Positions 3,266 through 52,628 of a stretch of 55,171 nt of DNA are shown one piece after another. This DNA is from a virus. Below the pieces are notes generated by a model. It had not been told where the DNA came from, ran no database searches, and was given only the letters and a program-made list of their open reading frames with translations. Numbering within the stretch: the first letter of the stretch is position 1; each line of letters starts with the position of its first letter. A program made the position numbers and the translations under genes. The stretch is taken from the IMG/VR virus record IMGVR_UViG_3300012971_000890; one strand, 5' to 3'.

Positions 3266-5314
3266 TTACTGACGCTGTTCCTCACCCCCGTTCTCACCGT
3301 CCACCCACGAGACGGTCAGGGCCTTGAGGGCTTCGGTCAGGGCGTTCTCTGCCTCCTTGACAGCTTTCTTCAGGGCCGGCACCTTCTCACGTTCGAGCGA
3401 GTGGATGTCCTTCTCGTTGGTGGCCAACTCCTGACGCCAGGTGTCCACCTGGGCACCACTCCCGCCCGATTTGACCAGTTCCAGCTTGCGGGCCTGTTCG
3501 CGGGAGAGAACCTGAACCTCCTGCTCCGCGTCACGGACCTTCTCGTTGGCCTCCGTGACCTTGTTGAACAGGTCGATGACGTTGGTGATCTTGCGGGACT
3601 TCACCAGCTTCTCCGGCGGGTTGTCCACTTCGAGGACCGAACGCAGGAACCACTGGAAGTTCTGAACCGGACTCTCATACAGGATGATGGTCTGGCTGAT
3701 CGGGTACGTCTCCTGCACCCGGACTTCCAGTTGGCCCTTGCCTGGCAGCTTGGCCGGGATGCGCAGGCCGTTCTCCAGGGCGGCGGTCGGGCCACTGTTG
3801 CCCTTGACCTGGAACGTGGTACGGGCGTCACCGATCTGGCGGGGATGCTCCACTTCCACGTTGAAGGTTTCGGGTTTGCTGTTGTTGAAGCGGTAGACCG
3901 TCTCGTGCGTATTCACATTGTCGATGACCACCGTGCCCTTGGTGATCTCGATGCGCACCCGACGATCACTGGTGCTGCCGCCGTTGGAGCCAGGCGGGTT
4001 CTTGAAGACGCGGACGCCGTTCTCGCGGGCGTGCGGCAGGGTGCGCTCCTCGCCGGGCTTGGTGGCCTCCAGCACGACCTGGCCCTGGTACACGTCGTCG
4101 GAATAAACCGTGCAGCTTCCCTTGCCGAGCGAGTATTCCGTGGTGTTTTTGAATTTCACCGCACGGTAGGGTCGCTTGGCGTCGGCCTGCTCCTTATAGA
4201 GCAGCAACACCTGGCCCTGGGCGTCCGCCTGGAACAGTGGGATGACCGCCGAACGCTTGCGCCCGATATTGACGGGGTTCTTGCTGGTGTAGATGGCGAA
4301 GTCGCCCACGTCGCTGACAACGGCACCGCCGCCCTCGGCGCGAGCCATTTCCGGCACTTCCGCGAACGCTGCCGCCGCCGGAGCCGCCATCGGGCGTGCC
4401 GCACCGAACGCCTGTGCTTTGGCCGTCCGGGCGGCACCGCCACGGGCGCGGACCCCGGAATCCTCCAACTCGGCCACTTCGTTGGACCATTGCGGCAGGG
4501 CGTCTTCCGCACCGACAGCGCCGGTCGCCATGTCGCTGATGATATTGACGCGCTGGCGACGGGGCTTGCGCACGTCGGCCAGGTCCGTCTCGAAGGTGTT
4601 GGGGTCGCCGGTGGCGCACGACACGATGTAGTCGTTCAGGTCTTCGTCGGTGGGGTTATCGACCTTGGCGCTGGCCTCGATCTCGCACTTGCCGTTCTTG
4701 AGACGGAGTTGGTAGACCATCTGCCAGGCCGAGAAGGGGATGGTCAACTGGTAGAGGACCGGCTCGTTGCCCTTGGCTTCGCCATCGGGGGCCAGACCGA
4801 TGCTGACCAGAGTGCTTTCGGGGTTGATGGTCGCGTAGTTGCGCTCCAGGGCCTTCTTGATCTCCTGCTGCACCACGTCATCGAGGAAGCGGAGCGACTT
4901 CACGTCGGCGTCGTTGTAGGTATAGCAGCGACCGTCTTCGCCGTAGACCGCCACGCGGTAGCGCTCGACCACCGCCTCGCCCACACGCTCCTCGTAGGGC
5001 TGGAGGCCGAGGAGGGTGCCCTTCATGCCCTCCCCGCCGCGTTCCTCGACCTGGACCTTGGCCCCGCTCAGCTTCGTGGCCAGGTCGCGGGTGACGTTGT
5101 TGGGGTCCACCGTCAACAGCTTCTCCGCGTCAGCCACGGGGTAGGAGGGCGGCTCGGTGATGCGGACGTTGCCGAACACCGCGAGGGTGGCCAGGGCGTC
5201 ACCGAGGCTGGTGCGCTTCACCGGGATTTGAACGGTGGTCTTCTCTTTCACCGCCGGGAGGCTCCGGGTGAAGTGGGCCATCCCGTTCGAGAAAATCGTC
5301 AAGTAATTACTCAT
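3266..5314 (-). CDS. large hypothetical protein (682 aa) with C-terminal coiled coil
   Basis: Longest ORF in the region; Ala/Gly-rich linker in the middle; heptad-like charged C-terminus (EKVRDAEQEVQVLSREQARKLE...). Confidence 0.55.
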   Translation of the reverse strand: MSNYLTIFSNGMAHFTRSLPAVKEKTTVQIPVKRTSLGDALATLAVFGNVRITEPPSYPVADAEKLLTVDPNNVTRDLATKLSGAKVQVEERGGEGMKGTLLGLQPYEERVGEAVVERYRVAVYGEDGRCYTYNDADVKSLRFLDDVVQQEIKKALERNYATINPESTLVSIGLAPDGEAKGNEPVLYQLTIPFSAWQMVYQLRLKNGKCEIEASAKVDNPTDEDLNDYIVSCATGDPNTFETDLADVRKPRRQRVNIISDMATGAVGAEDALPQWSNEVAELEDSGVRARGGAARTAKAQAFGAARPMAAPAAAAFAEVPEMARAEGGGAVVSDVGDFAIYTSKNPVNIGRKRSAVIPLFQADAQGQVLLLYKEQADAKRPYRAVKFKNTTEYSLGKGSCTVYSDDVYQGQVVLEATKPGEERTLPHARENGVRVFKNPPGSNGGSTSDRRVRIEITKGTVVIDNVNTHETVYRFNNSKPETFNVEVEHPRQIGDARTTFQVKGNSGPTAALENGLRIPAKLPGKGQLEVRVQETYPISQTIILYESPVQNFQWFLRSVLEVDNPPEKLVKSRKITNVIDLFNKVTEANEKVRDAEQEVQVLSREQARKLELVKSGGSGAQVDTWRQELATNEKDIHSLEREKVPALKKAVKEAENALTEALKALTVSWVDGENGGEEQRQ

Positions 5315-5335
5315 GCTTCCGTACTCCGAAAAGGT

Positions 5336-5941
5336 TCAGAAACTTCCATCATGGAGAATCACCGCCCCTGGCAAGCAAATGTCAAGCTCGTCAAGGTCGT
5401 ACTTCTTCTCCTCCCCCACCATCAGCCCCTTCTTGTCCAGCGCCGCGTCCACCAGCTTCCTTGCCTCCTTTCGGTTGTTGGCGACAACCACGGCGGTCAC
5501 ACCGACCGGCCACCTGCCGATGAAATTGGTAACGGTGAAAACCTTCAAGGGTTGCCTCTTGTAGTTGAAGGGGAACAACTCCAGCCCGTCGCAGAGCGGC
5601 TTGCCGACCGGGTGGAAGCTCCACCAGTAGCGTTTCTGTTTGTTGGGCACGATGACTTCAACGTGGGTCATGTCCATGATGACGATGTTGAAGCGACTTT
5701 TCTCGCCCTCGTACTGAAGGTCCAGAAGGCCGGTCGCGCCCTTCTTGATGATATTGTTGTTGAACCAAACGTCAACCTGTAACTCGCCGGTGGCCCGTAC
5801 TCCATCGTCGTAAGCCCCGGTGTCGTCCTCAGCCCACTCGTCGTCTTCCTTGGTCACCACTTCGAGTTGGACCTTTGCCTCGATCTGGCGGTGCGCCCCG
5901 ATAGTCAGCCCGCCCTTGTCGAACGTGTGGAAATCTCGCAC
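5336..5941 (-). CDS. hypothetical protein (GTG start, RBS AGAAAGGGG)
   Basis: 201-aa ORF directly downstream of a TTTACA promoter copy; strong Shine-Dalgarno before GTG. Confidence 0.5.
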   Translation of the reverse strand: MRDFHTFDKGGLTIGAHRQIEAKVQLEVVTKEDDEWAEDDTGAYDDGVRATGELQVDVWFNNNIIKKGATGLLDLQYEGEKSRFNIVIMDMTHVEVIVPNKQKRYWWSFHPVGKPLCDGLELFPFNYKRQPLKVFTVTNFIGRWPVGVTAVVVANNRKEARKLVDAALDKKGLMVGEEKKYDLDELDICLPGAVILHDGSF

Positions 5942-14018: not shown

Positions 14019-15047
14019 CTACTTGATGTTGAGGGAGTTGCAGAAACGGGTTGCCACGTCCAATACTACCTCCCGATCCTGCAAACCGTCTACCAGATTT
14101 CGGGGGAATATCGCCGGCCCGTGCAGGGCACCCAGCAGCGCCGCCAGCATGGAGCCGTTGGTGTCGGTATCCCCACCAGCCGACACGCAGTCAAACAGGG
14201 CGTCGATGGAGAGGGGGTTCTTCACGAAGAACATATAAGTGAAGGGCAGCGAGTTGAAAATATAGCAGTTGCCGCCCCCGAAGGCTTCGCTGATCTTGGC
14301 CGCGTCCTCATAGTCCTGGTGGTTGTAGAGCAGTTTGAGGGCGGCGTGCAGGTCGTCGTCGCCTTCGTCTTTACTTTTGGGGAATCGCTTGTCCTTGCCC
14401 ATCAAAGCGGCACCCACCACGCAATTTATAAAGGAATGGGTGCGGAAGTCCTGTGGGTCGCTGGTAAGGCATTTGAAAACGGCGAACGCCTGGCACAAGC
14501 CGCTTTGCACGGCCATGCGGGCGTCATGGGTCATACGGGAAAAGTAGTCGATGGTTTGGAGGCTTTCGGCCCAGGCCGGCTCCTTGCATTCGGGGTTGGT
14601 AACGGCCATTTGCGCCCCGATGGGGGCGATCTTCATGGGTATGCCGTTGCCAGTGCCGCGCTTCGGCTCAGTCGTCTTCCCCGACTTGTTCCACGGCACC
14701 CCGGTGGCAAGGCGGGCAACCGCTTCTCTGGTTGTTTTTCCCCAGCCGCGCACGCTCTTCTGATATTCAACAATGTGCCACGCGGCGATGGCGTTCATGT
14801 CCACGGTGCCGTAGGGCGACTCGATAATGCCTTCGGCGGTGGCCTTGGTCAGTTGCCAGTCGTCGGTGGTGGTCCCCCGTGAGTCGTGGTCGAAGTATTT
14901 GTGGCTGGCGCAGTCCTCATAGGAGGTAATGCGACCGTAGCGCTTCTGAATATTTTCCAGGCTCGCGCTCTCGGCGGGCTTACCCAGGGCGTCCCCAATG
15001 GCGATGCCCAGGAACATGCCGTTGATCCGGTCGCGGGTGATGGTCAT
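14019..15047 (-). CDS. ADP-ribosylglycohydrolase (DraG/ARH3 family)
   Basis: N-terminal GMFLGIAIGDALG, then GWGKTT, GNG and SAGGDTDTN in the family order; start taken at MTITRDRI. Confidence 0.75.
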   Translation of the reverse strand: MTITRDRINGMFLGIAIGDALGKPAESASLENIQKRYGRITSYEDCASHKYFDHDSRGTTTDDWQLTKATAEGIIESPYGTVDMNAIAAWHIVEYQKSVRGWGKTTREAVARLATGVPWNKSGKTTEPKRGTGNGIPMKIAPIGAQMAVTNPECKEPAWAESLQTIDYFSRMTHDARMAVQSGLCQAFAVFKCLTSDPQDFRTHSFINCVVGAALMGKDKRFPKSKDEGDDDLHAALKLLYNHQDYEDAAKISEAFGGGNCYIFNSLPFTYMFFVKNPLSIDALFDCVSAGGDTDTNGSMLAALLGALHGPAIFPRNLVDGLQDREVVLDVATRFCNSLNIK

Positions 15048-15465: not shown

Positions 15466-16032
15466 TTATATTTTGCCCAACTTCTTATACATGAGCAGTA
15501 CCGGCCAGGTCTTGGAGGAAATCTTGTTACGACTCACGCAGAGGGCGCAGACCTCGTTGAAGTCCATCAAGTGGACCTCGATCTCCTCGGTGGCCTCGTG
15601 GTGGTCGTGGGACACGGTGCCCTCGCACTCGCAGTATACCATGACCACCGACTCGTCAGAAAGGCCCGCCGATGAATAGAGCGGCGGGCTGATGTCGGTA
15701 ATGCCGGTCAGCGTCAGCCCGGTTTCCTCGTGTAACTCGCGCTTGGCGTCGGATACCGCGTCGGCTTCGGCAAGGCCGGCGGGAAAGGCATACTCGGTGT
15801 CGGCCAGGGGGATGCGGTATTCGCGGATCAGAACCAGCCTGCGGTTGCCGGCGGGGTCAACATGGACGGGAATCACGATCACAGCGTCAGGCTTGGGCTG
15901 GCCCTGGCTCACCGGGTTCTTCTTGCGGGAGGCGAAAATCCAATCACCTTCCTGGCCCCGGTTCTTCCAGTGAACCGAGAACAGGTTAAGCCAACGAAAG
16001 TCGGTGAGTTTCTTAGGCGGTGTTACCTGCAC
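15466..16032 (-). CDS. Nudix hydrolase (ADP-ribose pyrophosphatase-like)
   Basis: Nudix box GLAEADAVSDAKRELHEETGL (Gx5Ex7REUxEExGU). Confidence 0.75.
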   Translation of the reverse strand: MQVTPPKKLTDFRWLNLFSVHWKNRGQEGDWIFASRKKNPVSQGQPKPDAVIVIPVHVDPAGNRRLVLIREYRIPLADTEYAFPAGLAEADAVSDAKRELHEETGLTLTGITDISPPLYSSAGLSDESVVMVYCECEGTVSHDHHEATEEIEVHLMDFNEVCALCVSRNKISSKTWPVLLMYKKLGKI

Positions 16033-16294: not shown

Positions 16295-17383
16295 TTAGCC
16301 GTCGTCGTCCGACAAATCAGCGAACAGCCGGTTGGGGTACTTCAGCTTGTATCCCTCCAGCAGACGAGTTTTGATGCCCTCCTCGACACTGCGCTTGTCA
16401 AACGCCGTCATGAGCGACCCAAAAATCTGCGGGTACTCATTCTTGGCGAACCAGGCATAATCCTTGCGCAGTTTATCTGGCGGCGGGTCACCCACCCCCG
16501 CCACTAGCATTATAGACGCTGCGGTTTCGCGGACACGCTTGGTTTCGTGCAAAAGGTCAAGCTGGGCTTCGGTGTAAATCTCGCGCAGCTTTTCCTTGTG
16601 GCGGTCGGGGGCCTTGGCGATTAAGTCATCCATTAGGTCATCGAAAACGACCTCGTAGAGACGATAGGCCGGGCGCATCAAAGCGTCCACCGCACGGTGG
16701 CGCTCCAAATACCAGTTGCACTTCGCCTTCACCCAGAGGCCATTCTCAAGAACCACAACGTAGCCCTCAAACTCCTCCTTGTCAAGATGGCCAAACAGAT
16801 CGGCAAACGCGAAGTCGTACTGCTGCGCGGCGTCAGGATAGCGGGGGTAATAACTGTACTCGCCCGTGGCCCGGCACCGGGAATGCAGGTACACCAGGCG
16901 GGGGCGGGGATATTCCACCACGATCTGATTGTGAGGGGCGACAAATTCAAAAATCGGCGTGCAGCCCCTTCGCACATCCGCCACAATGTCGTCCACCATC
17001 CCCAGGCTGCGGGCCAACCGCATCGCCTGCTGCGCCTGCGGCGTCTCGCAAGACATTCGCGTGGACGCCCGCAGATCGCCCTTCCATTCAAAGAAGTGGA
17101 CCATCGAGCCGTCGAGCTTTTCGTAGACCCTGCCGTTCAGATGGCAGAGCTTGTGGTACTGCGTGTCTTCCGTCTGACCCACGTTGAAGAACTTGTGGAG
17201 AGGCAGGGAAACGATTTCCCCGGTGGCCTCGGCAAAAGTGATGCCACGGAATTCGCGGCGGATGCCGTCGAACGACCCTGGGAACTGGAGCAGGTAGTTG
17301 ATGCAAACCAAGCCATCGTACCGTTTTACGAGGAATTCCTCACGGCCTTCCAGGGCAACCAGGGCTTCGGGCAGCTTGAGCAT
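16295..17383 (-). CDS. RNA ligase, T4 Rnl1-like family
   Basis: 362 aa (T4 Rnl1 is 374 aa); motif I EKLDGS, motif IV EGYVVV, motif V LWVKAK; a TTTACA promoter copy lies immediately upstream. Confidence 0.65.
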   Translation of the reverse strand: MLKLPEALVALEGREEFLVKRYDGLVCINYLLQFPGSFDGIRREFRGITFAEATGEIVSLPLHKFFNVGQTEDTQYHKLCHLNGRVYEKLDGSMVHFFEWKGDLRASTRMSCETPQAQQAMRLARSLGMVDDIVADVRRGCTPIFEFVAPHNQIVVEYPRPRLVYLHSRCRATGEYSYYPRYPDAAQQYDFAFADLFGHLDKEEFEGYVVVLENGLWVKAKCNWYLERHRAVDALMRPAYRLYEVVFDDLMDDLIAKAPDRHKEKLREIYTEAQLDLLHETKRVRETAASIMLVAGVGDPPPDKLRKDYAWFAKNEYPQIFGSLMTAFDKRSVEEGIKTRLLEGYKLKYPNRLFADLSDDDG

Positions 17384-21120: not shown

Positions 21121-21486
21121 TTAGTCGTCGTCATCAATGCTGCGGTGTCTTGGGACGCCTTGTGGGTATTTAGCCTTGAGCCGGCGCTCCAATATAACCC
21201 ACTCGATAGCTTCTTGCACATCGGGCCAATATATGGCGGGCTGATCCCATTCCCCCTCCGTGGTTTCGTCCAGGGACTTGAGGATGCGCGATTCAAAAAA
21301 CTCGCCGCCGTCCACATCTCGCTGGACCAAACGGCACATGGTCCAGAACAGGATGTCATTGGCTTCGTCAAGGGACCGGGCCGGGATGTCATACGGCCCG
21401 GTCCACTTGTAGTTTTTCTGCATCGTCTCCAGGTCGTAGACGACGTAGCAAAACTTCATCGGGAAGGTTTCAAGCTTGCGTCTCAT
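21121..21486 (-). CDS. hypothetical protein, translationally coupled to the PARP-like gene
   Basis: ATGA overlap at 21483-21486 with the PARP-like stop. Confidence 0.45.
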   Translation of the reverse strand: MRRKLETFPMKFCYVVYDLETMQKNYKWTGPYDIPARSLDEANDILFWTMCRLVQRDVDGGEFFESRILKSLDETTEGEWDQPAIYWPDVQEAIEWVILERRLKAKYPQGVPRHRSIDDDD

Positions 21487-23105
21487 GCCGCAAATTCCAC
21501 GAGGTAGCGAAGCTCGAACTGGTTGCGCTGGAACACGATCCACTCGTTGTTCTGGACCTGCGAGTGGCCTCCCTTTCCGAAGACGCAGTGGCAGCCAGCC
21601 GGCGGGGCGGTATAACCACGCGGACCTGGCGCGACGTGCGGACGGCCCAGCACCACGTCACCCGCGAACATGAAAGCTTCACGGCCCCGCACGGCACCGC
21701 CGCCGGACGACCAGTAGCTCCCCCGCAGGCTGGTGTAGCCGGCACTTTTCTTCCAGTCGTCGGCCCAATAAATGCCGGGGCCGAACATAGCGCCGGTGAT
21801 GACCACGCCGACCAACTGACTCGGCATACGCAGGTTCTCCCGCAGGATGCCGGTGACGTTGACCGAGCGGGTGCCGTGGAACAGCAGGCCGGTGTTGCTG
21901 TCACGGTAGCGGCGGATGTCGTCGCTATTTTGCAAATCCGCACGCTCCGGCGGCTGGAACAGGGGCCGCTCGTCAATGCGATGCTTGCCCTGGACGATGC
22001 CGGCCTGCGCCCCCACCACCAACTTGTGGTCGCCGTGGCGCTCGACCCGCCAGGCGTTCTTGATTTTCATGGCTCCCAGGTAGCCGTGCTTGTTGGCCGT
22101 AGCGCGGGGCCACCAGCCGTAAAGCCACTTGCCCACATCGCTCTTGGGGTCGATCCACTCCATCTCGATGGGCATACCACCGAACGGGTCGTGCTGATGC
22201 TTCACGTCGTCCACGTCCGCAGCGACCGCCAGAGCCGCCTCAAAGGCGTCCAGGTCCGCCTGCCAGCCCAGGATGTTGCTGGTGTTGAGAATCCAGTCCT
22301 GGGGCGGGCAGTGCAGCGGCTTCTTCTTGGGGATGCGACCGTACATGAGCGCGGTCAAGTGCTTCAGGTCGTCATCGGCCACCTGGGCGTCCACGCTGTC
22401 GCCCACCACCAGCAGGCGCTTCTGGGCTTCGGCCAGGAAGTCGCGGGCCTCCTCGATGGCCGCTTGGGTGGGGATGGAGGCATCGGCCATGCTGCCACGG
22501 GCGTACTGCACCGTCGCCACGTTCAGGTCGCGCATGAGCGAGAGCGTATTCTGGTCCGCCGCACGGGCCGGGGCCTTGATGACCTTCTTCTTGGCACCTT
22601 TTTTGTCGTCCGCCGGGGTGTCGTCGGGCTTGTCCTTCGGTTTCGCCCCGTCGTTGGCCTTGATGGTGCGGGCGTCCGGCAGGCCAGTGCTGCGGGTCGC
22701 CATCGCCCGGACGAGGTAGCAGTCCTTGCCGGCGCGGGCACGCAGCACCCGCTTGCTGGCCACCTGGACCCACTCGCCCCGCTTGTCGTTCTTGTCGTGG
22801 AGTTGCGAAGCGAATTCACGCTGGGCGTCCGCCTCGCCGGAGCAGACCACGAACTGGAAGTTGGGGTTTTTCGCCCCGGTGCGGCCCCACTCGAAGTAAA
22901 CGGCCCACTGGCCGCTCGTCTTATGCTTGACGACCGCCGCGTGGTAGTATTTGTTTGAGTCCTTGCCGTCCTGGGTGAAACACCCCATGTCGGCAATCTT
23001 GCAACTGTCGAAGTCCCCATCCGCGATGGCGGGTGGTCCGAAGCACTGCCAATCGTTGGGGCTGGACCCGTTCGGGTAACTGTTCTTCTCGATCTTCGAT
23101 CCCAT
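21483..23105 (-). CDS. poly(ADP-ribose) polymerase-like ADP-ribosyltransferase with N-terminal WGR domain
   Basis: WGR motif (WAVYFEWGRTG); catalytic H-Y-E triad context LLFHGTRS, GPGIYWADD, QNNEWIVFQ; RBS GGAGAG; TTTACA promoter copy upstream. Confidence 0.75.
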   Translation of the reverse strand: MGSKIEKNSYPNGSSPNDWQCFGPPAIADGDFDSCKIADMGCFTQDGKDSNKYYHAAVVKHKTSGQWAVYFEWGRTGAKNPNFQFVVCSGEADAQREFASQLHDKNDKRGEWVQVASKRVLRARAGKDCYLVRAMATRSTGLPDARTIKANDGAKPKDKPDDTPADDKKGAKKKVIKAPARAADQNTLSLMRDLNVATVQYARGSMADASIPTQAAIEEARDFLAEAQKRLLVVGDSVDAQVADDDLKHLTALMYGRIPKKKPLHCPPQDWILNTSNILGWQADLDAFEAALAVAADVDDVKHQHDPFGGMPIEMEWIDPKSDVGKWLYGWWPRATANKHGYLGAMKIKNAWRVERHGDHKLVVGAQAGIVQGKHRIDERPLFQPPERADLQNSDDIRRYRDSNTGLLFHGTRSVNVTGILRENLRMPSQLVGVVITGAMFGPGIYWADDWKKSAGYTSLRGSYWSSGGGAVRGREAFMFAGDVVLGRPHVAPGPRGYTAPPAGCHCVFGKGGHSQVQNNEWIVFQRNQFELRYLVEFAA

Positions 23106-25551: not shown

Positions 25552-25737
25552 TTATTCCTTCGCCGGCTCTTCTGCCTCGTGGGAGCAGTAGCCACAGCGA
25601 GCGCCGGTGAGAATGCCGCCGCAAGTGCAGCAGTAGCGAGTCAGGAAGTTCTGAATGAACTCCAGGCGGTCTTCCGGGCGGAAGTGCTTCTGCCGCTCCA
25701 GAAACGCCTCATATTCCTCCTTGGCGGACTGCAACAT
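25552..25737 (-). CDS. small zinc-ribbon protein
   Basis: CCTCGG ... CGYCSH. Confidence 0.4.
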   Translation of the reverse strand: MLQSAKEEYEAFLERQKHFRPEDRLEFIQNFLTRYCCTCGGILTGARCGYCSHEAEEPAKE

Positions 25738-26380
25738 CGACGCCTCCGATCAGGGTGTTTGGGGTGAGGGGCTGCTTCATCCAGTGCTGGGAGGTTTGGA
25801 CGTGTCGGGGCCGGACGTACTTGGCGACGTGCAGGCCGAAATCCTGGTAGGGAAAAGCATCACGGGTGCGAACGACGTAGCCTTCGCAAGTGTGTCCGAA
25901 CGCCGAGGCGCGGGGCCACAAGTCGCGGATGCGGTCCTCGTCCCAGATTCCCTCATATAAAACCGGCACCGTGGGCACGTCCAGCAGACAGGCCCACTCC
26001 TGGGTGTCGTCCCAGGAAAGACAGGTGTTTCCGTCGTCATAAATACCGATCAGGTAGAAATAAGCGGTCAGGCGGTCGTAGAAGATGCTGTGCTTGGCGT
26101 ACAGGTTTTCACCACATAATCGCCAGCCCTGCGGGATGTTATGGCGAATTGAAGCGTGGACTTGCTTGACCAAAGTGCGGGAAGGATGGCTGCCTGAACT
26201 GCGGGAACGGGCGTGGTAGTGGATCGGATACATGGACGTATTTTCACCGTCCAGCTTCTCGGTCATGATGACTTGCTTGCCGAGAAAATGGTTCACATCC
26301 CCCAGCACCCTGTCGTCCTGGTCGGACTTTCGGCTCCAGGGAAAGTGGGGCGTTCGCGGGTACTTGTAAAGCCCGTTCAT
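25709..26380 (-). CDS. ATP-dependent RNA ligase (PF09414/Rnl2-like minimal ligase)
   Basis: YKYPRTPHFPWS N-terminus; motif I TEKLDGEN; motif IV CEGYVVR; motif V HVAKYVRP. Confidence 0.6.
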   Translation of the reverse strand: MNGLYKYPRTPHFPWSRKSDQDDRVLGDVNHFLGKQVIMTEKLDGENTSMYPIHYHARSRSSGSHPSRTLVKQVHASIRHNIPQGWRLCGENLYAKHSIFYDRLTAYFYLIGIYDDGNTCLSWDDTQEWACLLDVPTVPVLYEGIWDEDRIRDLWPRASAFGHTCEGYVVRTRDAFPYQDFGLHVAKYVRPRHVQTSQHWMKQPLTPNTLIGGVDVAVRQGGI

Positions 26381-29575: not shown

Positions 29576-30547
29576 CTAATCGAGTTTGACATCTCCGGCC
29601 TTCAACCTTTCCCGAATGCGGTCCAGCCCCCGCTCACGCAGTTGCCGAACACGTTCCTTGGTCAGTCCCAAATCCGCACTGATTTCCTTGAGGGTGCGTT
29701 TGCTGCCGTCGCAATCATGCAGCCCAAACCATTCCTCGATGACGAAGCGCTTGCGCTCGTCCTCCTCGCGGTCCAGCAGGCTTAGAAGGCGGGAGACATT
29801 TCTCTGCGTAAGCTCCTTGGCTTCCTCGTGGTCACGGCAATCCTCGTCGCTGGTGTCGAGGCGGGTGTCATATATTCCGTCATCGAAGCCGGTGACGAAC
29901 CGCTCGTTGAAGTTGCGTTCACCGGCGAGATCGCGGGTGAAGTTGTTGAGCAAGACCCAGGTGCCGTAGGTGGAGAATTTGAAACCACGGGTCCAGTCAA
30001 AACAATCCACCGCCTTGACGATATTCAGGTAGGCGTCGGAGAGCAGGTCGTTCACCAGGCTGTGCGCCCGATAAAAGTCCGTGCGTTTGCGAAGCACCTG
30101 AGCGGCCAACCGGGTGTTGGAACACACAAGTTGGTGCTTTACCGTCTCGGCCAGTTTCAAATAGTCCTCCACCTTCTGGAGCTTCTTTTTCATTCGATCA
30201 TATTGATCCCTGGTGGTCGGCTCCTTCTGCCGCAGGGTGCGGGCCAGCCTTTTTGCCCGATACTTGAAATAGTTGAACTTGCGAAACAGGTGATATTCTT
30301 GCTCCTTGTCCAGCAGGGGTTCCTGGTACAATGGAATCAACTCGGTCGGTATATTTTGGCCCTTGAGCTTCGTGACCTCGTTGCGCTTCTCGTTGAATTC
30401 CGCCAGCCGGGGCATGTCGCCAACGATAACGACTTCCTTAGTGCGGTCATCAAAGTCGGGATGGTTGAAAATCTTGAATTTCTTGTTGGTGACGAACGCC
30501 TTGAGTCGTTTGGCCTTCTGCGTAACGTCGTCCTTAACTGCCAGCAT
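29576..30547 (-). CDS. sigma-70 family RNA polymerase sigma factor
   Basis: Region 2 FSTYGTWVLLNNFTRDLA; region 4 HTH KRTLKEISADLGLTKERVRQLRERGLDRIRERL; sits behind the promoter copy with a perfect TATAAT. Confidence 0.75.
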   Translation of the reverse strand: MLAVKDDVTQKAKRLKAFVTNKKFKIFNHPDFDDRTKEVVIVGDMPRLAEFNEKRNEVTKLKGQNIPTELIPLYQEPLLDKEQEYHLFRKFNYFKYRAKRLARTLRQKEPTTRDQYDRMKKKLQKVEDYLKLAETVKHQLVCSNTRLAAQVLRKRTDFYRAHSLVNDLLSDAYLNIVKAVDCFDWTRGFKFSTYGTWVLLNNFTRDLAGERNFNERFVTGFDDGIYDTRLDTSDEDCRDHEEAKELTQRNVSRLLSLLDREEDERKRFVIEEWFGLHDCDGSKRTLKEISADLGLTKERVRQLRERGLDRIRERLKAGDVKLD

Positions 30548-30638: not shown

Positions 30639-31043
30639 TTACGGAAGCGGCACGAGAAATGCGTTAAGTGCCTTGACGATCTTCCGCACCCGATACCCGT
30701 TGGGGTGGTCCACAACAACCGTAATTTCCTTGTCAGCCACCGCCCAGGGTTTGCCGGCGGCGTTTTGTTCGATGATGACGTAGATGCAGGTGTTGTGGGT
30801 GTAGCGGCGGCTGTAACCGTGCGTGTCCCAAAGCTCCTTGTCTTGCGGCGTTTGGAAAATAAAAAACTCGTTGCGATCAAGTGCTTGGCGAAGTCGCCGG
30901 CTGGGAGCGCCGTGGGGCGGGTCGTCGTACTCAACGACCAGCCCTGGCCACTCCCGCCGGCAAATACCGAGGACGCCTTTCTCAACCTGGGCGTAGGTCT
31001 TCCCCTCCGGCCACTCATAAAGCAGATCGTAACCGCCGATCAT
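30639..31043 (-). CDS. hypothetical protein (start MIGGYDLLYE...)
   Basis: ATGA overlap with the histidine-kinase stop at 31040. Confidence 0.4.
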   Translation of the reverse strand: MIGGYDLLYEWPEGKTYAQVEKGVLGICRREWPGLVVEYDDPPHGAPSRRLRQALDRNEFFIFQTPQDKELWDTHGYSRRYTHNTCIYVIIEQNAAGKPWAVADKEITVVVDHPNGYRVRKIVKALNAFLVPLP

Positions 31044-33283
31044 CCGATCTCCACCTTGGAGTGTTTCCTGAACAAGTCCTCCAGCACGCCGGGGATCACC
31101 GGCTTGACGAGATATTCGTGGAAGCCCGCCTCGCTCGCTAACATGCGGTGTTTCTCGGAAGCCAAGCCGGTGACCGCGATAATCACCGCTTGCGGCACCA
31201 GACGGCGCAGTTCTCTGCACACCTTGAAGCCGTCCATGTAGGGCAAGCCGATGTCGAGCAGCACCACGTCGGGATCGAACTCATTGGCACTTTTGATAGC
31301 CGCCGGCCCGTCATTGGCCACCCACACGTCGTAGCCCTGCATACGCAGCATGGCCACGAAGCTGTCCGCCGCGTCCACGTTGTCATCCACCACCAGGATG
31401 CGGCAGTCCTTGCTGGGGGCGGTGGGCACGGTAGCCGGCTCTTCGCGGGTGCGACGTGGAGTGATGGGTTCCGGCATGGCCACCCGCTCCTCGCGCCCGT
31501 TGATGACAGGCAGTTTGACGGTGAAGGTGCTGCCAAGGTTCAAACCAGGACTGTGGGCATTGACGCTGCCGGCGTGCATCTCCACGATCTGCTTGACCAG
31601 GCTCAGGCCCACGCCCAACCCGCCCATGCTTCCGGTGACATGGTTCTGGCCGCGCCGTTCCGCCTGAGCGAACAGGTCGAAAACCTTCCCCAGCATTTGC
31701 TCCGAGATGCCGATGCCCGTGTCGGTGATGCTGACGATGGCCTCGCGCTCGTCGCTCTCCATGTCAATGCGAATCTTGCCGCACGCCTCGGTATATTTCG
31801 CGGCATTATTGAGGAGGTTGGTGAAAACCTGCTCCAGACGGGCCAGGTCGCCTTCCACCCACACCGCCATGACCGGGACGTTGATGGTCAGGGCATGATA
31901 ACGCATATCCAGGTTGGGGCGAGACTGCTCGATGGCACGGGCAATCGCCTGCTGGAGTTGGACCGGCTTGCGCTGCAATTGGAGCTTACCCCGGCTGATG
32001 CGAGCAACGTCCAGCAGGTCGTCCAGCAAACGCGAAATGTGCTGGACCTGGCGCTCGATGAGTTGGCGGTGGTCGCGCACCACCGGATCGCAGTCGCCGT
32101 CACGCATCCGCGTCACTTGCAAGCTGGACAGGATGGGTGCCAAGGGGTTGCGCAGTTCGTGGGACAGGATAGCCAGGAACTCGTCCTTGCGGCGGTCGGC
32201 CTCGGAAAGCTCCTCTACCAGTTGGCGGTGTTCGGTCAGGTCGAGGCACAAGGACACCCAGCCGTCCTTGACGGGCGTATAGAGGCCATTCACCCACCGC
32301 TTGCCGATGCCGGGGATGTCCAGTTCGTCCTCGTAGTTGACATGCTCACCGGCAAGGACTTTTTGAAACTTGGGCAGCAACTTGTCGAAGATTTCCTGGC
32401 CGAAGACTTCGATGATGGACTTGCCGATAATGTCCTCGACGGGCCGTTTCAGCCAGCACCCGTAGGGTTTGCTGCACCACAGGACTTTGAAATCACGGCT
32501 GAAGTGGATCACACACGCCGCCATGCCGTCCACGACGGTGTGCAATTGCGCCGTGACCTCGGCCAACTGGTCGGCCTCGTGCTTACGCTCCGTGAAATCC
32601 TGAAGCACCGCGACCCAACCCTCCTTGGTGGGGGTGTACCGGCCCACCACCCAGCGCGGGCCGATGTTGGCGATGTTAATTTCCTGCTCGTATTCGACCT
32701 GCTCCCCGTGGATCGCCTTTTCCCAGAGGGGCCGCAGGATATTGAACGCCTCATCTCCGATAATATCACGGATCGGGCGACCGATAACCTCCTCCGGGGA
32801 CTTCCGCAGCCAATCGCAATACGGCTTGCTGGCCCAGAGGTATTTGTAGTCCCGGTCCAGGTGGCAGACGGCTGCGGCCATGCCGTCCACTACGCTGTGC
32901 AATTGGGTCGTCACACGCGCCAGACGTTCTTCGTGTTTTTTTCGCTCGGTGATGTCGCGGACGACCGCCACAAATCCCATCTCGCAGGGCGAAATCGTCA
33001 TCTCGATGGGAAACTCCTCGCCGTTGAGGCGCTTCGCCCGTGTCTCCACGAGAGAGCCTATCATCGGCCCCCGCCCCGTGGCCTTGTAAGTGTCCAGACC
33101 GGCGCGGACCTGCGGCACCATTCGTTCCGGCACGAACAATTCGTGAACGGATTTTCCCACCAGATTATCCGCCGGGCAGCCGAACATTCGTTCCGCCGCC
33201 GGGTTGAACGTGGTGATGGTCAGGTCTTTATCGGTGAGGATGATTGCGTCCTGCGCGGCTTCCAGAACGGCGTTCAGCATCAT
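31040..33283 (-). CDS. hybrid sensor histidine kinase/response regulator with about four PAS domains
   Basis: H-box HELRNPLAPI; N/G boxes (NLLNNAAKYT, DTGIGI, GGLGVGLS); C-terminal receiver domain (ILVVDDN ... LLDIGLP ... LVKP). Confidence 0.85.
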   Translation of the reverse strand: MMLNAVLEAAQDAIILTDKDLTITTFNPAAERMFGCPADNLVGKSVHELFVPERMVPQVRAGLDTYKATGRGPMIGSLVETRAKRLNGEEFPIEMTISPCEMGFVAVVRDITERKKHEERLARVTTQLHSVVDGMAAAVCHLDRDYKYLWASKPYCDWLRKSPEEVIGRPIRDIIGDEAFNILRPLWEKAIHGEQVEYEQEINIANIGPRWVVGRYTPTKEGWVAVLQDFTERKHEADQLAEVTAQLHTVVDGMAACVIHFSRDFKVLWCSKPYGCWLKRPVEDIIGKSIIEVFGQEIFDKLLPKFQKVLAGEHVNYEDELDIPGIGKRWVNGLYTPVKDGWVSLCLDLTEHRQLVEELSEADRRKDEFLAILSHELRNPLAPILSSLQVTRMRDGDCDPVVRDHRQLIERQVQHISRLLDDLLDVARISRGKLQLQRKPVQLQQAIARAIEQSRPNLDMRYHALTINVPVMAVWVEGDLARLEQVFTNLLNNAAKYTEACGKIRIDMESDEREAIVSITDTGIGISEQMLGKVFDLFAQAERRGQNHVTGSMGGLGVGLSLVKQIVEMHAGSVNAHSPGLNLGSTFTVKLPVINGREERVAMPEPITPRRTREEPATVPTAPSKDCRILVVDDNVDAADSFVAMLRMQGYDVWVANDGPAAIKSANEFDPDVVLLDIGLPYMDGFKVCRELRRLVPQAVIIAVTGLASEKHRMLASEAGFHEYLVKPVIPGVLEDLFRKHSKVEIG

Positions 33284-38147: not shown

Positions 38148-39440
38148 TTAGGCGGCTTTTACGGGGTACAACTTGGCCTCACCCCGGACCACTTCCGGCG
38201 TGACGACGTACTTGCCTCCCTGGTGTTCCGGCAGTTCGTACATGATGTCGAGCATGATCTCCTCGACCACGCCCCGCAACGCACGGGCACCCGTGTCGCG
38301 CTCGATGGCCCGCTTGGCGACTTCCTTGATGGCATCCGGCGTAAATTCCAGGGTCGCGCCGTCCATCTTGAAAATCTTCATGTACTGCTTGAGTAGGGCG
38401 TCCTTCGGCTCGGTCAGAATCTTGCAGAGGAATTCCTCGTTCAACTCGCTGAGGGTGGTTACGACCGGCAGCCGGCCCACGAACTCCGGGATCATCCCGA
38501 ACTCAATCAGATCGTCGCTGGTCACCTTGCCCATGATGGCGTCGTTCTGCTCTTGCTCAGTGCCCTCGTCACGCGATACGCCGAAGCCGATGCTGCGTCG
38601 GCCCGTCCGGCGAGCGATGATCTCCTTCAGGCCGGTGAAGGTTCCCCCGCAGATGAACAGGATGTTCGTCGTGTCCACCTGGATGTATTGCTGCTCCGGG
38701 TGCTTGCGCCCGCCCTGGGGCGGGACGTTGGCGAGCGTGCCCTCAAGCATCTTCAGGAGAGCCTGTTGCACGCCTTCGCCGGAAACGTCGCGGGTGATGG
38801 AAATATTCTGCGTGGTCTTCCCGATCTTGTCGATCTCGTCAATGTAAATGATGCCGCACTGCGCGGCCTCGATGTTAAAGTCCGCCGAGCGGAGAAGACG
38901 CAGGATCAGGTTTTCCACGTCCTCTCCGACGTAACCGGCCTCGGTTAGCGTGGTGGCGTCCCCAATGGCAAAGGGGACATCCAGTTTCTTGGCCAGGGTG
39001 CGGGCCAGAAGGGTCTTGCCCGACCCGGTGGGACCGACCAGCAGAATGTTGCTCTTGTCGATCACCACGTCCGCCAACGGGTCTTCCTCCTCCTTGTTCT
39101 GGTTGGTGGTGTCCTTCAGACGCTTGTAATGGTTGGCGACGGCGACGGCCAGAATCTTCTTCGCCCGTTCCTGGCCCACAACGTACTGGTCCATGTGGGC
39201 GACCAGTTCCTTGGGCGAAGGGATGTGCTGGGGCAGGTGCTTGTCGATGAGTTCGCGTTTCAGGTTTTGCTTCTTGATGATCTCCTGGCAAATCTCCACG
39301 CAGGTGGGGCAAATGAAGACCTTATCCTCGTCCGGCTTTCTGCCGTTGGCGAGGGCACCTGGCCCCTCAATCAACGGTCCCACAACCTTGTGAGACTGCT
39401 TGCAGAAGTCACAGTGCTGCTCACGCTTTTTCCTCGTCAT
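38148..39440 (-). CDS. clpX: ATP-dependent Clp protease ATP-binding subunit ClpX
   Basis: N-terminal C4 zinc-binding domain; [47 protein letters not shown] is near-identical to the ClpX consensus. Confidence 0.9.
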
Positions 39441-39479
39441 GCTGTCCTCGTTGGGTGTAAAGGATCGCGTTTCCAACCT

Positions 39480-39512: not shown

Positions 39513-40589
39513 CTACTCGCAAGAACTTGCTGCCTTTTCACGCGCCTCGCTAAGTGCCTGTTTGCAACGCGCCTTAAAGTCTTGATCCGTCATGGCCTCC
39601 ACGATTCGCTCGATCTCCTCGATGGGCTTGTTGGCCTCAACAGCATTCAACACCGCGTCGAGGTCATGGTTTTGCCTCCGCAGGCAGGCCAGTTCCAACC
39701 CGCCAATCTCCGTGGCCACCAGATGGGGGTCGGGGTACGCCCGGCCCAGCACCGCCAGAAGGGGTCCAAAGTCCGCCCCCGGCGTGTTTTTGCAAATTTC
39801 CAGCGTCCGCAGCAGGTTGACGTGGAGGGACGCTTTCGTGGCGGGAACGGCGGCTTCCGCCTCCGCATACCTCCCCAAGCTCGCCAACACAAAGACCTTG
39901 CGCAACCTGCGGAATTCGGCATGATTCTCGACCCGGTTGATCTCAGACTGTGCCAGCAACGCCACCAGGGGCATGATGAGGGCCATCATCCACAGCCCCG
40001 TGGCCAAAGCATACAGGAACAGGAGCAGGCAGGTCACCTGGCCGACCCGCACGGCCCACCAATTGGCCTTCTGGTAGTCCATGAACCGGCCCAAGATGGA
40101 GCGAAAGATGCGGCCTCCGTCCATCGGATAAGCCGGTGCCAAATTGAAAACGAACAGCATGACGTTGATGTAGGCAAACCAGAACGCCACCTGAGCCGCA
40201 ACCATCCAATTCAGTTCGACAAATACCAGCACCAAGCCGCTACACAGTACCGCCAGGACAACATTCACCATCGGCCCCATAACGGTGACGATAAACTCCT
40301 TGCGCGGGTCGTCCGGGCCAATCTCGATGGCGGCAACCCCGCCGATAGGATAAAGGACCACCCGATCCACCTGGATGCCCTGGCTCTTGGCGGCGAGGAT
40401 GTGTCCGTATTCGTGCATTACCACGAACAGGAACACAGCCAGGAACAGCGCGGTGGCCAAGGGGTTAAGGAACAGCATCATCACCATCATCATGACCCAC
40501 GACCAGTGGGCATAAAGGGGCACCCCAAAGTAAGTACCCAGGTGCGGGTTAACTATTTTCTGCAAAAGCTCCGTGCTGTTCATATTCAT
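39513..40589 (-). CDS. site-2 protease family (M50) membrane metalloprotease
   Basis: HEYGH and NLAPAYPMDGGR motifs; several TM segments. Confidence 0.75.
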   Translation of the reverse strand: MNMNSTELLQKIVNPHLGTYFGVPLYAHWSWVMMMVMMLFLNPLATALFLAVFLFVVMHEYGHILAAKSQGIQVDRVVLYPIGGVAAIEIGPDDPRKEFIVTVMGPMVNVVLAVLCSGLVLVFVELNWMVAAQVAFWFAYINVMLFVFNLAPAYPMDGGRIFRSILGRFMDYQKANWWAVRVGQVTCLLLFLYALATGLWMMALIMPLVALLAQSEINRVENHAEFRRLRKVFVLASLGRYAEAEAAVPATKASLHVNLLRTLEICKNTPGADFGPLLAVLGRAYPDPHLVATEIGGLELACLRRQNHDLDAVLNAVEANKPIEEIERIVEAMTDQDFKARCKQALSEAREKAASSCE

Positions 40590-40635
40590 CCTTGGGGTGG
40601 GGGCTACATAAATATTATAGGGAAAAGGAGCCAAT

Positions 40636-41211
40636 TTGAGACTCGACCATATAGCATACCGCGTCCGCGACCGCCACACCACCGCGAAATTCTTTCGGGA
40701 AGCATTCGGCTACAAAGTCCAGACCGAATTTGACATCGACTTCGGCGGCGGCAAGTGTGCCAAGTGCCTCGCCCTGGAGCCGCCGGAGCGTCAAAATGCC
40801 CCCCGACATCTTATCCCCTGGGTGGCCGGGGAAGCAATATACATTCCGTGCCCGGACGGCGGGATGCAGAATGTGGTGCAGGATTACCACCTGGCCCCGG
40901 AGATTTTCGTCTCCGATGGTTCGCCAGGAAGCATTGTGGGGGATTGGGTTGCGGCCCGTGGAGGGGTCGGTGGCATTCACCACCTGGCATATCAGGTCGA
41001 AGATGTGGCGGCAACAATGAAGGAGTGGCGGGACAGAGGCTACGCGGAATTTACATCAGAAGAACCCATGCGATGTCCCGGACTGACCCAGGTGTTTACC
41101 AAACCCTCCTCGCTAACGGGCGTGATTTACGAGTTCATCGAGCGCCAGGAATTCGGCTTCTGCAAAGACAACGTGCGCCAGTTGATGCTCTCGACCCAGG
41201 AGGAAAAATGA
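40636..41211 (+). CDS. VOC/glyoxalase-family protein (TTG start)
   Basis: MRLDHIAYRVRD...FFREAFGY glyoxalase-fold N-terminus; RBS AAGGAG. Confidence 0.6.
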   Translation: MRLDHIAYRVRDRHTTAKFFREAFGYKVQTEFDIDFGGGKCAKCLALEPPERQNAPRHLIPWVAGEAIYIPCPDGGMQNVVQDYHLAPEIFVSDGSPGSIVGDWVAARGGVGGIHHLAYQVEDVAATMKEWRDRGYAEFTSEEPMRCPGLTQVFTKPSSLTGVIYEFIERQEFGFCKDNVRQLMLSTQEEK

Positions 41212-43504: not shown

Positions 43505-44011
43505 TTAGGCGGCTTCTCCCTTGAAGTAGCGCATGGAGTCGTTGTCGCGGACCAGCACCTTCTTCTTCATCATGCGCCCCACCGCCTGCTGGACCATATT
43601 GTGGAAGTTCTTGCTGGTGGACTTGTAACCCGCCTTGAGGGCCTGGGTCACCATCTCGTCCAGGGCCAGGCCGTTCCTCGACTTCTCAACCAGTTCGAGG
43701 AGCAGTTCCTCCAGGGGCGGCTGCTTCCCCTCCACGCCCAACTCGGCCTTGGACGGACGCCCTCGGCCCCGCTTCTGCCCATTCGCCGCCGGCTTCCGGG
43801 CCTGCCGGGTCGCACGGGGGCCACTTTGCTTGGGCGGCTGCCGGCCCACGGTCACGGTCGGGGTGGGCTTGATGGCAGCGCCATCCTCACTTTTGAAGGA
43901 CCACCCAAGCTCCGCGAGCTTGGCGTCGATTTCCTTCAGTTCCTCCCTCAGTTCTTCTTCCTTCGCGGCCCTCTGCTGAAGTAGCTCGATGGCCTGCTTC
44001 GTGTCGGACAT
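43505..44011 (-). CDS. DNA-binding protein with AT-hook (KRGRGRPSK) and N-terminal coiled coil
   Basis: RGRP AT-hook motif; basic middle region. Confidence 0.45.
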   Translation of the reverse strand: MSDTKQAIELLQQRAAKEEELREELKEIDAKLAELGWSFKSEDGAAIKPTPTVTVGRQPPKQSGPRATRQARKPAANGQKRGRGRPSKAELGVEGKQPPLEELLLELVEKSRNGLALDEMVTQALKAGYKSTSKNFHNMVQQAVGRMMKKKVLVRDNDSMRYFKGEAA

Positions 44012-44097: not shown

Positions 44098-44125
44098 ACT
44101 ATACGGGCCATATTATGGCTGTAAA
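44098..44125 (-). promoter_or_regulatory. phage promoter, CTTTACAGC-N16-TATAGT
   Basis: Upstream of the 43505..44011 gene, divergent from csrA. Confidence 0.55.
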
Positions 44126-44207
44126 GCAGGAGAAAGCGATTTTCCAAAAATAGTCGGGGCTTACTCGCTTAAACCAGCACAGAAGGATTATCAGAAAGGA
44201 AACACTC

Positions 44208-44396
44208 ATGCTCGTGCTATCCAGAAAGAAGGACGAAACCATCATCCTGAAAGGCCCCGACATGCACGAAATCCGAATCACGGTGGTGCGGATCGACAAT
44301 CGCAATAAGGTCCGCCTGGGTATCGAAGCCAATAAGGATGTCACGGTCCTTCGTTCGGAACTTACCAACGGCACCGGCCACGAGGGCGAAGCCTAA
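44208..44396 (+). CDS. csrA: carbon storage regulator CsrA homolog
   Basis: MLVLSRKKDETIIL...VRLGIEANKDVTVLRSEL matches the CsrA fold sequence; RBS AAAGGAAAC. Confidence 0.75.
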   Translation: MLVLSRKKDETIILKGPDMHEIRITVVRIDNRNKVRLGIEANKDVTVLRSELTNGTGHEGEA

Positions 44397-44848
44397 CTGT
44401 ACTCCGGTACATGGAGGGCTTTATTTATCACGCCCACTACGCGGCGATATTCCTGGCTGTTGATGTCCCAAAAATAACGTGCGAAATAGCAGACCGCCTC
44501 CGGGGCGTAGTCCTGCCCCTTATCCCAGCCCGCCGCACGAACCTGCTCGGCCCAGCTTGCGATGTCCTCGTCAGTAACCTGCACCCCAGCATCCCAGGGA
44601 TGCCCCTTGGGCTTGCAAGGTGGCTTTCCTGCGGGGATGACCACCCGCGACCGCCCACTGGTGACCACACTCGGCTGGGGTTCGGGGGCCGGCGGCTCGG
44701 CGGGGGCACCGCCAATAACTCCAGCCGCCGTGGCCGGCGTATCGGCCAGCTTCACCGGCGGCGAGAACTGGTGGCCGCACTCGCATCGCTGCGTCCGCAA
44801 ACCCACCGACTTGTGGCACTTCGGGCATTCCTTCAAACCACGGGGCAT
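44393..44848 (-). CDS. zinc-ribbon hypothetical protein
   Basis: CPKCH ... CECGH near the N-terminus; downstream of a TTTACA promoter copy. Confidence 0.45.
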   Translation of the reverse strand: MPRGLKECPKCHKSVGLRTQRCECGHQFSPPVKLADTPATAAGVIGGAPAEPPAPEPQPSVVTSGRSRVVIPAGKPPCKPKGHPWDAGVQVTDEDIASWAEQVRAAGWDKGQDYAPEAVCYFARYFWDINSQEYRRVVGVINKALHVPEYS

Positions 44849-44870: not shown

Positions 44871-44899
44871 ATTCTATCGCCCACTTTTCCGGTTGTAAA
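44871..44899 (-). promoter_or_regulatory. phage promoter, CTTTACAAC-N17-TAGAAT
   Basis: Upstream of the 44393..44848 gene. Confidence 0.65.
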
Positions 44900-52547: not shown

Positions 52548-52598
52548 TTTGGACCTCGTAATTCGAGACTTCGTGCATTTTAGTCGGGCGCTTGCCGC

Positions 52599-52628
52599 TT
52601 TGGCAATAAGGGAAACTGTTTTTTACTC
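52599..52628 (+). promoter_or_regulatory. putative plus-strand promoter TTTACT-N16-TATACT, with palindrome TTGCC-n5-GGCAA just upstream
   Basis: Divergent region before the CinA-NMNAT gene. Confidence 0.35.

Follow-up and report, generated by a model that had tools for sequence, protein, structure and literature searches.

A CsrA-Family Gene of a Distinctive Subfamily on a Huge-Phage Genome Fragment, with a Two-GGA Leader That Fits Autoregulation

A CsrA-Family Gene under Purifying Selection

The stretch of viral DNA analyzed here (IMG/VR record IMGVR_UViG_3300012971_000890; 55,171 nt, referred to as the window) carries a csrA-family gene that is real and under selection. CsrA proteins borne by phages are already documented, and the gene in the window is a new, somewhat unusual member that belongs to a distinctive subfamily. 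On balance, the features of the protein and of its mRNA leader favor a role as a GGA-binding translational repressor, which would limit its own synthesis through a leader with two GGA motifs and would act on other leaders during infection.

44208..44396, plus strand: csrA-family coding sequence, an ATG-to-TAA open reading frame of 62 aa plus the TAA stop codon, with a match to PF02599

The 62-aa product, MLVLSRKKDETIILKGPDMHEIRITVVRIDNRNKVRLGIEANKDVTVLRSELTNGTGHEGEA, had been proposed in a first-pass annotation to be a homologue of CsrA/RsmA, and the search with the Pfam CsrA profile that was recommended there bears this out. PF02599 matched residues 1-54 over profile positions 1-49 of 53 with 60.1 bits (E = 2e-16), well over its gathering score of 27 bits, and the residues of strands β1 and β5 are kept. 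In addition, PHROG 9500 ("CsrA-like regulator") matched the protein at 1.4e-9; the best PDB match of the single sequence was E. coli CsrA (1Y00, 1.4e-3), and a profile of 48 homologues matched RsmE from P. fluorescens (2JPP) at 2.1e-7. The scores obtained with the NCBIfam csrA equivalog models TIGR00202 and NF002469 were below both cut-offs (47.7 bits versus 73, and 45.9 bits versus 70.1, respectively), and judged by these profiles the protein is a member of the CsrA family, not an equivalog of the housekeeping CsrA. When the gene was compared with nine relatives, codon position 2 was 87-100% identical and position 3 only 21-65%. This pattern indicates that the plus-strand csrA frame is under purifying selection, and the overlapping minus-strand open reading frame at 44099..44374 was therefore rejected as a gene and is regarded as spurious. 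No second csrA copy was found in the window, and LR756511.1, the closest complete genome, likewise holds one copy only.

RNA-Contact Strands Are Kept, the Canonical Helix Motif Is Not

The RNA-binding residues of E. coli CsrA, as defined by published alanine scanning, are L2, L4, R6, R7, V40, V42, R44, and I47. Compared with E. coli CsrA and RsmE, the window protein has kept L2, L4, R6, K7 (R7), V45 (V40), V47 (V42), R49 (R44), E51 (E46), and L52 (I47), and a check for missing RNA-binding residues found both the R44 equivalent, R49, and the entire β5 stretch V45-T-V47-L-R49-S-E-L52 in place. Throughout the 48 homologues the RNA-contact residues of β1 and β5 are invariant, except for V45 (I or V) and conservative changes of the L52 type; the alignment has 29 invariant columns within the first 52 residues, followed by a hypervariable tail.

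The protein falls into the same length class as CsrA, RsmA, and RsmE (PF02599; 1Y00, 2JPP), has five predicted β-strands, and shares with them the β1 motif MLxLxR(R/K) and the β5 motif VxVxRxE(I/L), the R44 equivalent included. However, it is only about 38-40% identical to E. coli CsrA, from which it differs by four additional residues between β2 and β3 (GPDM in the window copy), an insertion that marks the subfamily, by a β3-β4 turn that is longer by one residue, by A-N-K in place of the canonical A-P-K, and by a leucine in place of H43. Furthermore, the helix motif of canonical CsrA (EEIYxxI, or "VHRxEVYxxI") is absent, and RSEL is followed by a short, Gly-rich tail, which is variable and predicted to be disordered. 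An AlphaFold (AF2) model of the monomer, of moderate confidence (pLDDT 69.6), placed strands at residues 2-5, 10-15, 22-28, 34-41, and 46-51, contained no helix, and left the tail (residues 55-62) disordered. A Foldseek search of the PDB with this model gave no significant match, a result that is uninformative because CsrA protomers fold only as intertwined dimers and a monomer cannot reproduce the domain-swapped dimer. The lack of the canonical C-terminal helix, together with the scores below the equivalog cut-offs, suggests that the RNA specificity of the window protein may differ from that of CsrA.

Two further observations concern the subfamily and its metagenomic relatives. The tails of 80 out of 120 proteins end in A, L, V, or I, often after a [QL][IL]S motif, and such ends could act as a degradation or docking tag. 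In addition, some metagenomic representatives (P0154, P0155, P0157, P0164, P0170, P0189, and P0204) contain two or three CsrA domains per chain connected by Gly-rich linkers and are apparent single-chain CsrA "dimers".

The Window Is a Piece of a Huge-Phage Genome

Public gene calls on identical contigs list 85 genes in the window and leave about 2 kb of it uncovered (33.1-34.2 kb and 54.4-55.2 kb). Eighty of these genes lie on the minus strand and five on the plus strand (starts at 40636, 41208, 44208, 48092, and 52677), in agreement with the earlier statement that csrA is one of only five plus-strand genes, and most of the 85 are without a family match. A close CsrA homologue was found in a single one of 50,697 GenBank phage records, LR756511.1, which represents an uncultured 595-kb phage. 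This genome contains homologues of 28 of the 85 window proteins, and 38 kb of the window (12.5-50.5 kb) are collinear with its region from 180.7 to 203.0 kb. CsrA is the best conserved of the 28 shared proteins, with 78.8% identity compared with at most 62% for the others. The shared block comprises genes for a ClpX-like ATPase, an M50 peptidase, a glyoxalase, endonuclease VII, a small DNA-binding protein, CsrA, Prs, FolD, a kinase, and a ParB-like protein, and the same block recurs on a metagenomic contig of 670 kb as well as on viral contigs in IMG/VR that reach 532 kb. When 14 kb of the window were compared with GenBank phages by megablast, no match was obtained, so that the relatedness is visible at the protein level only. 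The collinearity with the curated 595-kb phage genome and with the IMG/VR contigs confirms the viral setting that had been assumed for the gene, and gene content and synteny indicate that the window is part of a very large phage genome.

The alternative that the window represents a chromosomal or misassembled fragment with an ordinary bacterial csrA would draw on the fact that CsrA is common in bacteria and on the lack of capsid, portal, or terminase genes among the window genes scanned. In view of the collinear 38 kb in a deposited phage genome, the recurrence of the block on viral contigs and on the 670-kb contig, the location of 80 of 85 genes, most of them without family match, on one strand, and the bacterial CsrA proteins, which are at most 60% identical and do not have the insertion, we consider this origin extremely improbable.

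The window also holds several genes that are of interest in their own right. It encodes a protein with PARP catalytic and WGR domains (62% identity with its counterpart in LR756511.1), an ADP-ribosylglycohydrolase, a NUDIX hydrolase, and two RNA ligases, a combination that suggests an ADP-ribosylation and RNA-repair set. A ClpX-like unfoldase, which shares 61% identity with its LR756511.1 counterpart, is encoded beside a homologue of M50 site-2 proteases, 5 kb from csrA. In addition, the gene of a sigma-70-family factor adjoins that of a 747-aa hybrid sensor kinase (31040-33283, minus strand) in which PAS domains are combined with HisKA/HATPase and a receiver domain; phages do not usually carry a full sensor kinase.

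21483-23105, 14019-15017, 15466-16032, 16295-17383, and 25709-26380, minus strand: ADP-ribosylation and RNA-repair gene set
38148-39476 and 39513-40682, minus strand: ClpX-like unfoldase and M50 site-2 protease homologue

Distribution of the Subfamily and Its Cellular Relatives

A word-indexed search returned 869 CsrA relatives, the best 120 of which were 69-100% identical to the window protein, and IMG/VR contributed 30 loci with 60-87% identity, whose genomes span 32-59% G+C. In a set of 185,579 species-representative genomes, the sole comparably close match (76%) was located on a 13.7-kb contig (L076; RXKI01000134.1) of 33% G+C that had been binned with a Neisseriaceae MAG. Since this contig shows the same csrA-Prs synteny as the phages, it is almost certainly a mis-binned fragment of a huge phage. 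All other cellular matches were at most 60% identical and came nearly exclusively from Planctomycetota, in a scan that was biased by its search word, VLSRKKDE. When 1.84 billion cluster representatives were searched exhaustively with HMMER, a continuum of "helix-less" relatives emerged, in which proteins of 67% and 49% identity are encoded in the same lone-strand arrangement on phage-like contigs, and one relative that does not have the insertion is surrounded by housekeeping genes of bacteria. Within the searches made here, the subfamily was found only in phage-type contexts.

The helix-less CsrA proteins of Planctomycetota (L077, L078, Isosphaeraceae MAGs; P0229) share MLVLSRK, the RITVVRIDRNQVRLGI core, and ILR(Q/E)EL in β5 with the window protein and, similarly, are missing the VHRxEVY helix motif. 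With up to 57-60% identity they are the closest cellular sequences, a ranking that is provisional because the scan was biased towards the VLSRKKDE word. In contrast to the phage subfamily, they have no β2-β3 insertion, have kept A-P-P/K, possess long Pro/Ala-rich tails, and are surrounded by housekeeping genes. Planctomycetota genomes contain two CsrA types, a canonical one and another (RITVVRIDRNQVRLGI...ILRQEL) that resembles the phage subfamily, and this resemblance provides a weak hint at the origin or the host of the phages.

In several of the related huge phages the subfamily copy is accompanied, at a distance of 2-8 kb, by a second csrA of the canonical type with the VHRxEVY motif.

L042, L063, and L058 (on the same contigs as L008, L011, and L037): second, canonical csrA loci
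L014-L016 and L021, at about 5244-5393, minus strand: second, canonical csrA loci

The presence of a subfamily copy and a canonical copy in one phage suggests that the two types do different jobs, and where the second copy lies 5-8 kb away it lends some weight to the idea that the subfamily protein is a decoy or antagonist, which soaks up sponge RNAs or FliW-type antagonists of the host Csr/Rsm system or poisons the host CsrA by heterodimer formation. Such heterodimers are conceivable, as the MLVLSRKKDE N-terminus and the RIDxN...LRxEL residues resemble one of the Planctomycetota CsrA types. However, FliW contacts the C-terminal helix and extension of Bacillus-type CsrA, which are absent or hypervariable in the phage subfamily, and the window did not provide any sign of the antagonists of a Csr/Rsm system, in which a sponge sRNA or FliW is encoded alongside CsrA. 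No FliW was found among the precomputed Pfam matches of the 85 called genes, and an Rfam search of the window gave no match and hence no sponge RNA of the CsrB/RsmY/RsmZ type. Likewise, GGA-dense non-coding stretches were found neither in the window, where GGA density peaks inside coding regions, nor in 40 related loci or the complete 595-kb LR756511.1. The missing FliW-contact region and the lack of FliW and of sponge-like RNAs in these searches make a decoy role less likely, and we consider it very unlikely overall; an antagonist encoded by the host is possible. A segment on the plus strand of one related locus (L029, 5200-5390) with 25 GGA in 150 nt was considered as a sponge RNA and rejected, as it codes for an Asp/Glu/Gly repeat. 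Its 190 nt consist of a run of GAC/GAG/GAT/GGG codons for (DEDEDG)n, which forms the end of a 540-aa open reading frame downstream of csrA.

A Conserved Lone-Strand Arrangement

The position of csrA relative to its neighbors is conserved together with the protein. In most subfamily loci csrA is the sole gene on its strand, with a divergent gene of approximately 150-180 aa at a distance of 180-290 nt and a convergent gene whose end lies at -24 to +70 nt from the end of csrA; in the window the two stop codons overlap by 4 nt. This end-to-end or overlapping convergent arrangement recurs in most csrA relatives, and the lone-strand arrangement persists in relatives with only 49-67% identity.

43505..44011, minus strand: divergent partner of 168 aa; coiled coil at the N-terminus, AT-hook-like KRGRGRP, winged-helix-like domain at the C-terminus
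44393..44848, minus strand: convergent gene of 151 aa in the public calls, Cys-rich with CPKC...CEC, its stop overlapping the csrA stop

Most subfamily loci have kept the divergent partner upstream of csrA, and its product is probably a small DNA-binding protein. One of its homologues matched HARE-HTH at 1.4e-5; the window copy itself gave only a sub-threshold match to AT_hook. Its C-terminal domain contains an invariant Y and an invariant Q in GYKS..K.F.NMVYQA (alignment A3). The partner gene was also considered as a conserved target of CsrA and rejected, since its leaders mostly have a single GGAG. The convergent gene had been described earlier as a zinc-ribbon gene ending at 44393. Its end is correct and CPKC...CEC is present, but none of the zinc-ribbon matches in Pfam reached threshold. 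The start at 44848 in the public call is consistent with a promoter at 44899..44871.

Promoters, Terminator, and Antisense Transcription

44098..44125, minus strand: TTTACA-16-TATAGT promoter of the divergent gene (motif scan)
44871..44899, minus strand: TTTACA-17-TAGAAT promoter of the convergent gene, directed towards csrA (motif scan)
5999, 9009, 13629, 17417, 21109, 23175, 25545, 30611, 39508, 43443, 44125, 44899, and 50591, minus strand: TTTACA-class sites, consensus cTTTACAAC-N-gTAnAAT
44139..44174, plus strand: conserved element ATTTTCCAAAAATAG...CTTACTCGCTTAAAC, candidate csrA promoter of a non-TTTACA class (13-locus alignment)
44389..44428, plus strand: terminator-like hairpin (44389-44421) over the csrA stop, followed by the U-rich tail UUUAUUUAU (folding)

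The TTTACA-class promoter that had been noted as divergent from csrA was recovered as TTTACA-16-TATAGT at 44125..44098 on the minus strand, and TGTAAA together with a TATAC-like box is kept at its position in most related loci. Sites of the form TTTACA-N15-18-TAnnnT occur 13 times in the window compared with 0.21 expected, every one of them on the minus strand and a short way upstream of a gene, and no TTTACA-type site was found on the plus strand of the whole window. The TGTAAA box adjoining csrA is also conserved across related phages of 32-59% G+C. A palindrome in the spacer of the divergent promoter, GCCATATTATGGC (GCCATA-T-TATGGC, 44107-44119), was rejected as an operator because the nearest relative, L005, has not conserved it.

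Upstream of csrA itself lies the candidate promoter, which is composed of an A-tract and (C)TTACTCnnTTAA, and the alignment of 13 diverged loci (A1) shows an invariant ACT together with the A-tract and TTAA. Its core TAGTCGGGGCTTACTCGCTT (44151-44170, plus strand) resembles TAGTCGGGCGCTTGCCGCTT (52581-52601, plus strand), located upstream of the plus-strand gene that starts at 52677, and this likeness could mean that plus-strand genes share a promoter or operator. The phage encodes its own sigma-70-family factor with regions 2 and 4 (29576-30547, minus strand).

At the other end of the gene, the hairpin spanning the csrA stop has a minimum free energy of -24 kcal/mol (z = -2.5), which was equaled in 2 of 200 shuffled sequences; a simple terminator scan also flagged 44402-44416, and the hairpin is conserved in some but not all of the csrA relatives. 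A convincing terminator on the minus strand was sought between 44393 and 44125 and none was found, which makes antisense read-through from the convergent gene across csrA likely. In the mechanism that we favor, the expression of csrA would be separated from that of its TTTACA-driven neighbors by its different promoter and by this head-on transcription from the convergent gene.

The csrA Leader and Possible Autoregulation

44183..44192, plus strand: upstream AAGGATTATC, with GGA at 44185-44187 (-23; 13 nt before the Shine-Dalgarno GGA), proposed CsrA site 1
44195..44203, plus strand: Shine-Dalgarno AAAGGAAAC, with GGA at 44198-44200 (-10; 8 nt before the ATG), proposed CsrA site 2
Two-GGA csrA leader segment: 5'-CAGAAGGAUUAUCAGAAAGGAAAC-3'

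The first-pass annotation had pointed out two GGA motifs in the csrA leader and a possible autoregulation. Both motifs were located: AAGGATTATC contains the upstream one (44185-44187) and AAAGGAAAC the one in the Shine-Dalgarno sequence (44198-44200). In E. coli, CsrA acts as a repressor of its own translation, and one CsrA dimer can bridge two GGA sites that are at least 10 nt apart. As in autoregulated csrA genes, the leader in the window contains one GGA overlapping the Shine-Dalgarno sequence (-10) and a second one at bridging distance (-23), and the spacing of approximately 13 nt is compatible with a single dimer bridging both sites.

The comparison with relatives lends support to the idea of autoregulation. 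Each of the 28 distinct subfamily leaders has a Shine-Dalgarno GGA at -8 to -11 (mostly -9/-10), usually as GAAAGGAA. In 15 of them another GGA lies at -28 to -19, compared with 4.3 +/- 1.9 in dinucleotide shuffles (maximum 12 in 1000), for an interval that was picked after the data had been inspected and for leaders that are related to one another. Among neighboring genes with a Shine-Dalgarno GGA only 11 of 86 (13%) have a second GGA in the same interval. In the wider interval from -50 to -17, 21 of the 28 leaders have a second GGA, compared with 13.3 +/- 2.3 in shuffles. The two-GGA leader thus appears to be commoner in the csrA relatives than in shuffles or in neighboring genes and fits autoregulation. 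Within the G+C-rich window it is not unusual, as it occurs in 17 of 85 genes, and the csrA leader of LR756511.1 has the Shine-Dalgarno GGA only and no second site. Hairpins presenting GGA in a loop were also sought, and the csrA leaders fold no better than shuffles (z about 0). Codons 1-5 and the part of the leader that lies 5' of the first GGA seemed to pair over a long range, with apparent covariation (AGCAC:GUGCU versus AGUAC:GUACU); this pairing was rejected, as its duplex energies had a mean z of -0.18 relative to shuffles in the 28 leaders.

In summary, these data are consistent with a mechanism in which the phage would make its own CsrA-family protein, small, presumably dimeric, and RNA-binding, which would recognize GGA in mRNA leaders and block ribosome binding. 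By binding the two GGA sites at -23 and -10 in its own leader, CsrA would limit its own translation, similar to E. coli CsrA, and other mRNAs with GGA-containing leaders, from the host and/or the phage, would be repressed or re-tuned during infection. Since 72 of the 85 window genes carry GGA in their Shine-Dalgarno sequence, this mechanism leaves the target selectivity of CsrA unexplained. The AAAGGAA form of the Shine-Dalgarno sequence, which is the usual one in the subfamily leaders, is used by only 2 of the 85 genes, among which GGAG dominates.

It is possible, albeit with distinctly lower probability, that CsrA regulates only the phage's own program, for example a translational switch from early to late genes, and has no meaningful targets in the host. 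The extreme conservation of CsrA across phages of 32-59% G+C, and hence probably across different hosts, suggests a partner that travels with the phage, and the fixed position and orientation of csrA inside the phage core block as well as the GGA-containing Shine-Dalgarno sequences of most window genes would agree with such a role. However, a search for a conserved two-GGA leader on the conserved divergent partner gene found none, and no class of sites stood out as enriched among the window genes. Moreover, GGA is a near-universal element of bacterial Shine-Dalgarno sequences, so that conservation cannot separate host from phage targets, and we continue to favor a self-limiting repressor that would also act on other leaders from either source.

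Relation to CsrA of Other Phages and Mobile Elements

Genes for CsrA have been described earlier in Pseudomonas phages F116/H66 ("RsmM" type), in Bcep22-like phages, and as gp28 in the E. coli phage PTXU04 (PMC7366521, PMC11879866), and a survey from 2020 found csrA in 30 of 2517 phage genomes (PMC7366521). Knock-down of the csrA homologue of PTXU04 resulted in smaller plaques (PMC11879866), and a function of phage CsrA has been proposed but not established (PMC7366521, PMC11879866). Like the window gene, these genes (PHROG 9500/5527) place the CsrA family on tailed phages. However, they encode canonical-type proteins in 40-75-kb phages of Proteobacteria, whereas the subfamily described here occurs on contigs of up to 670 kb, matches PHROG 9500 only at the 1.4e-9 given above, and is set apart by a signature of its own and by a fixed arrangement in the genome. 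Other CsrA paralogues on mobile elements include CsrT of Legionella ICEs and plasmid-borne RsmE-like genes (PMC7366521). There, too, the element brings its own CsrA, which presumably tunes the expression of the host or the element, but the type of element and the subfamily are different, and nothing found in this analysis connects the window csrA with conjugation or integration functions. As csrA has already been documented on phages and on other mobile elements, the gene in the window does not by itself reveal a new mechanism.

A search of the literature on CsrA in combination with huge or jumbo phages yielded no paper that connects the two and none on this subfamily, and CsrA is not mentioned in the founding huge-phage paper. 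We may also consider a bolder and rather unlikely scenario, in which the helix-less, loop-extended CsrA would be a hallmark of one clade of huge phages, possibly infecting Planctomycetota or descended from phages of Planctomycetota, and would serve as the post-transcriptional arm of host take-over. It would be expressed from its own class of promoter on the antisense strand, shut off by head-on, TTTACA-driven transcription from the neighboring gene and by binding to its own two-GGA leader, and have an RNA specificity or a partner unlike those of cellular CsrA. If this were true, the differing specificity or partner would explain why some of these phages have kept a second, canonical csrA.

The finding bears on the question of how huge phages, whose genomes contain numerous genes related to translation, bias protein synthesis. 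Of the proteins that the window shares with LR756511.1, none is as well conserved as CsrA (79% versus at most 62% identity), which is also present in hundreds of metagenomic variants. Its gene therefore represents a concrete and readily testable candidate for the control of translation initiation by a phage, and the subfamily, with 52 conserved residues and no helix, offers a natural minimal CsrA for structure-function work.
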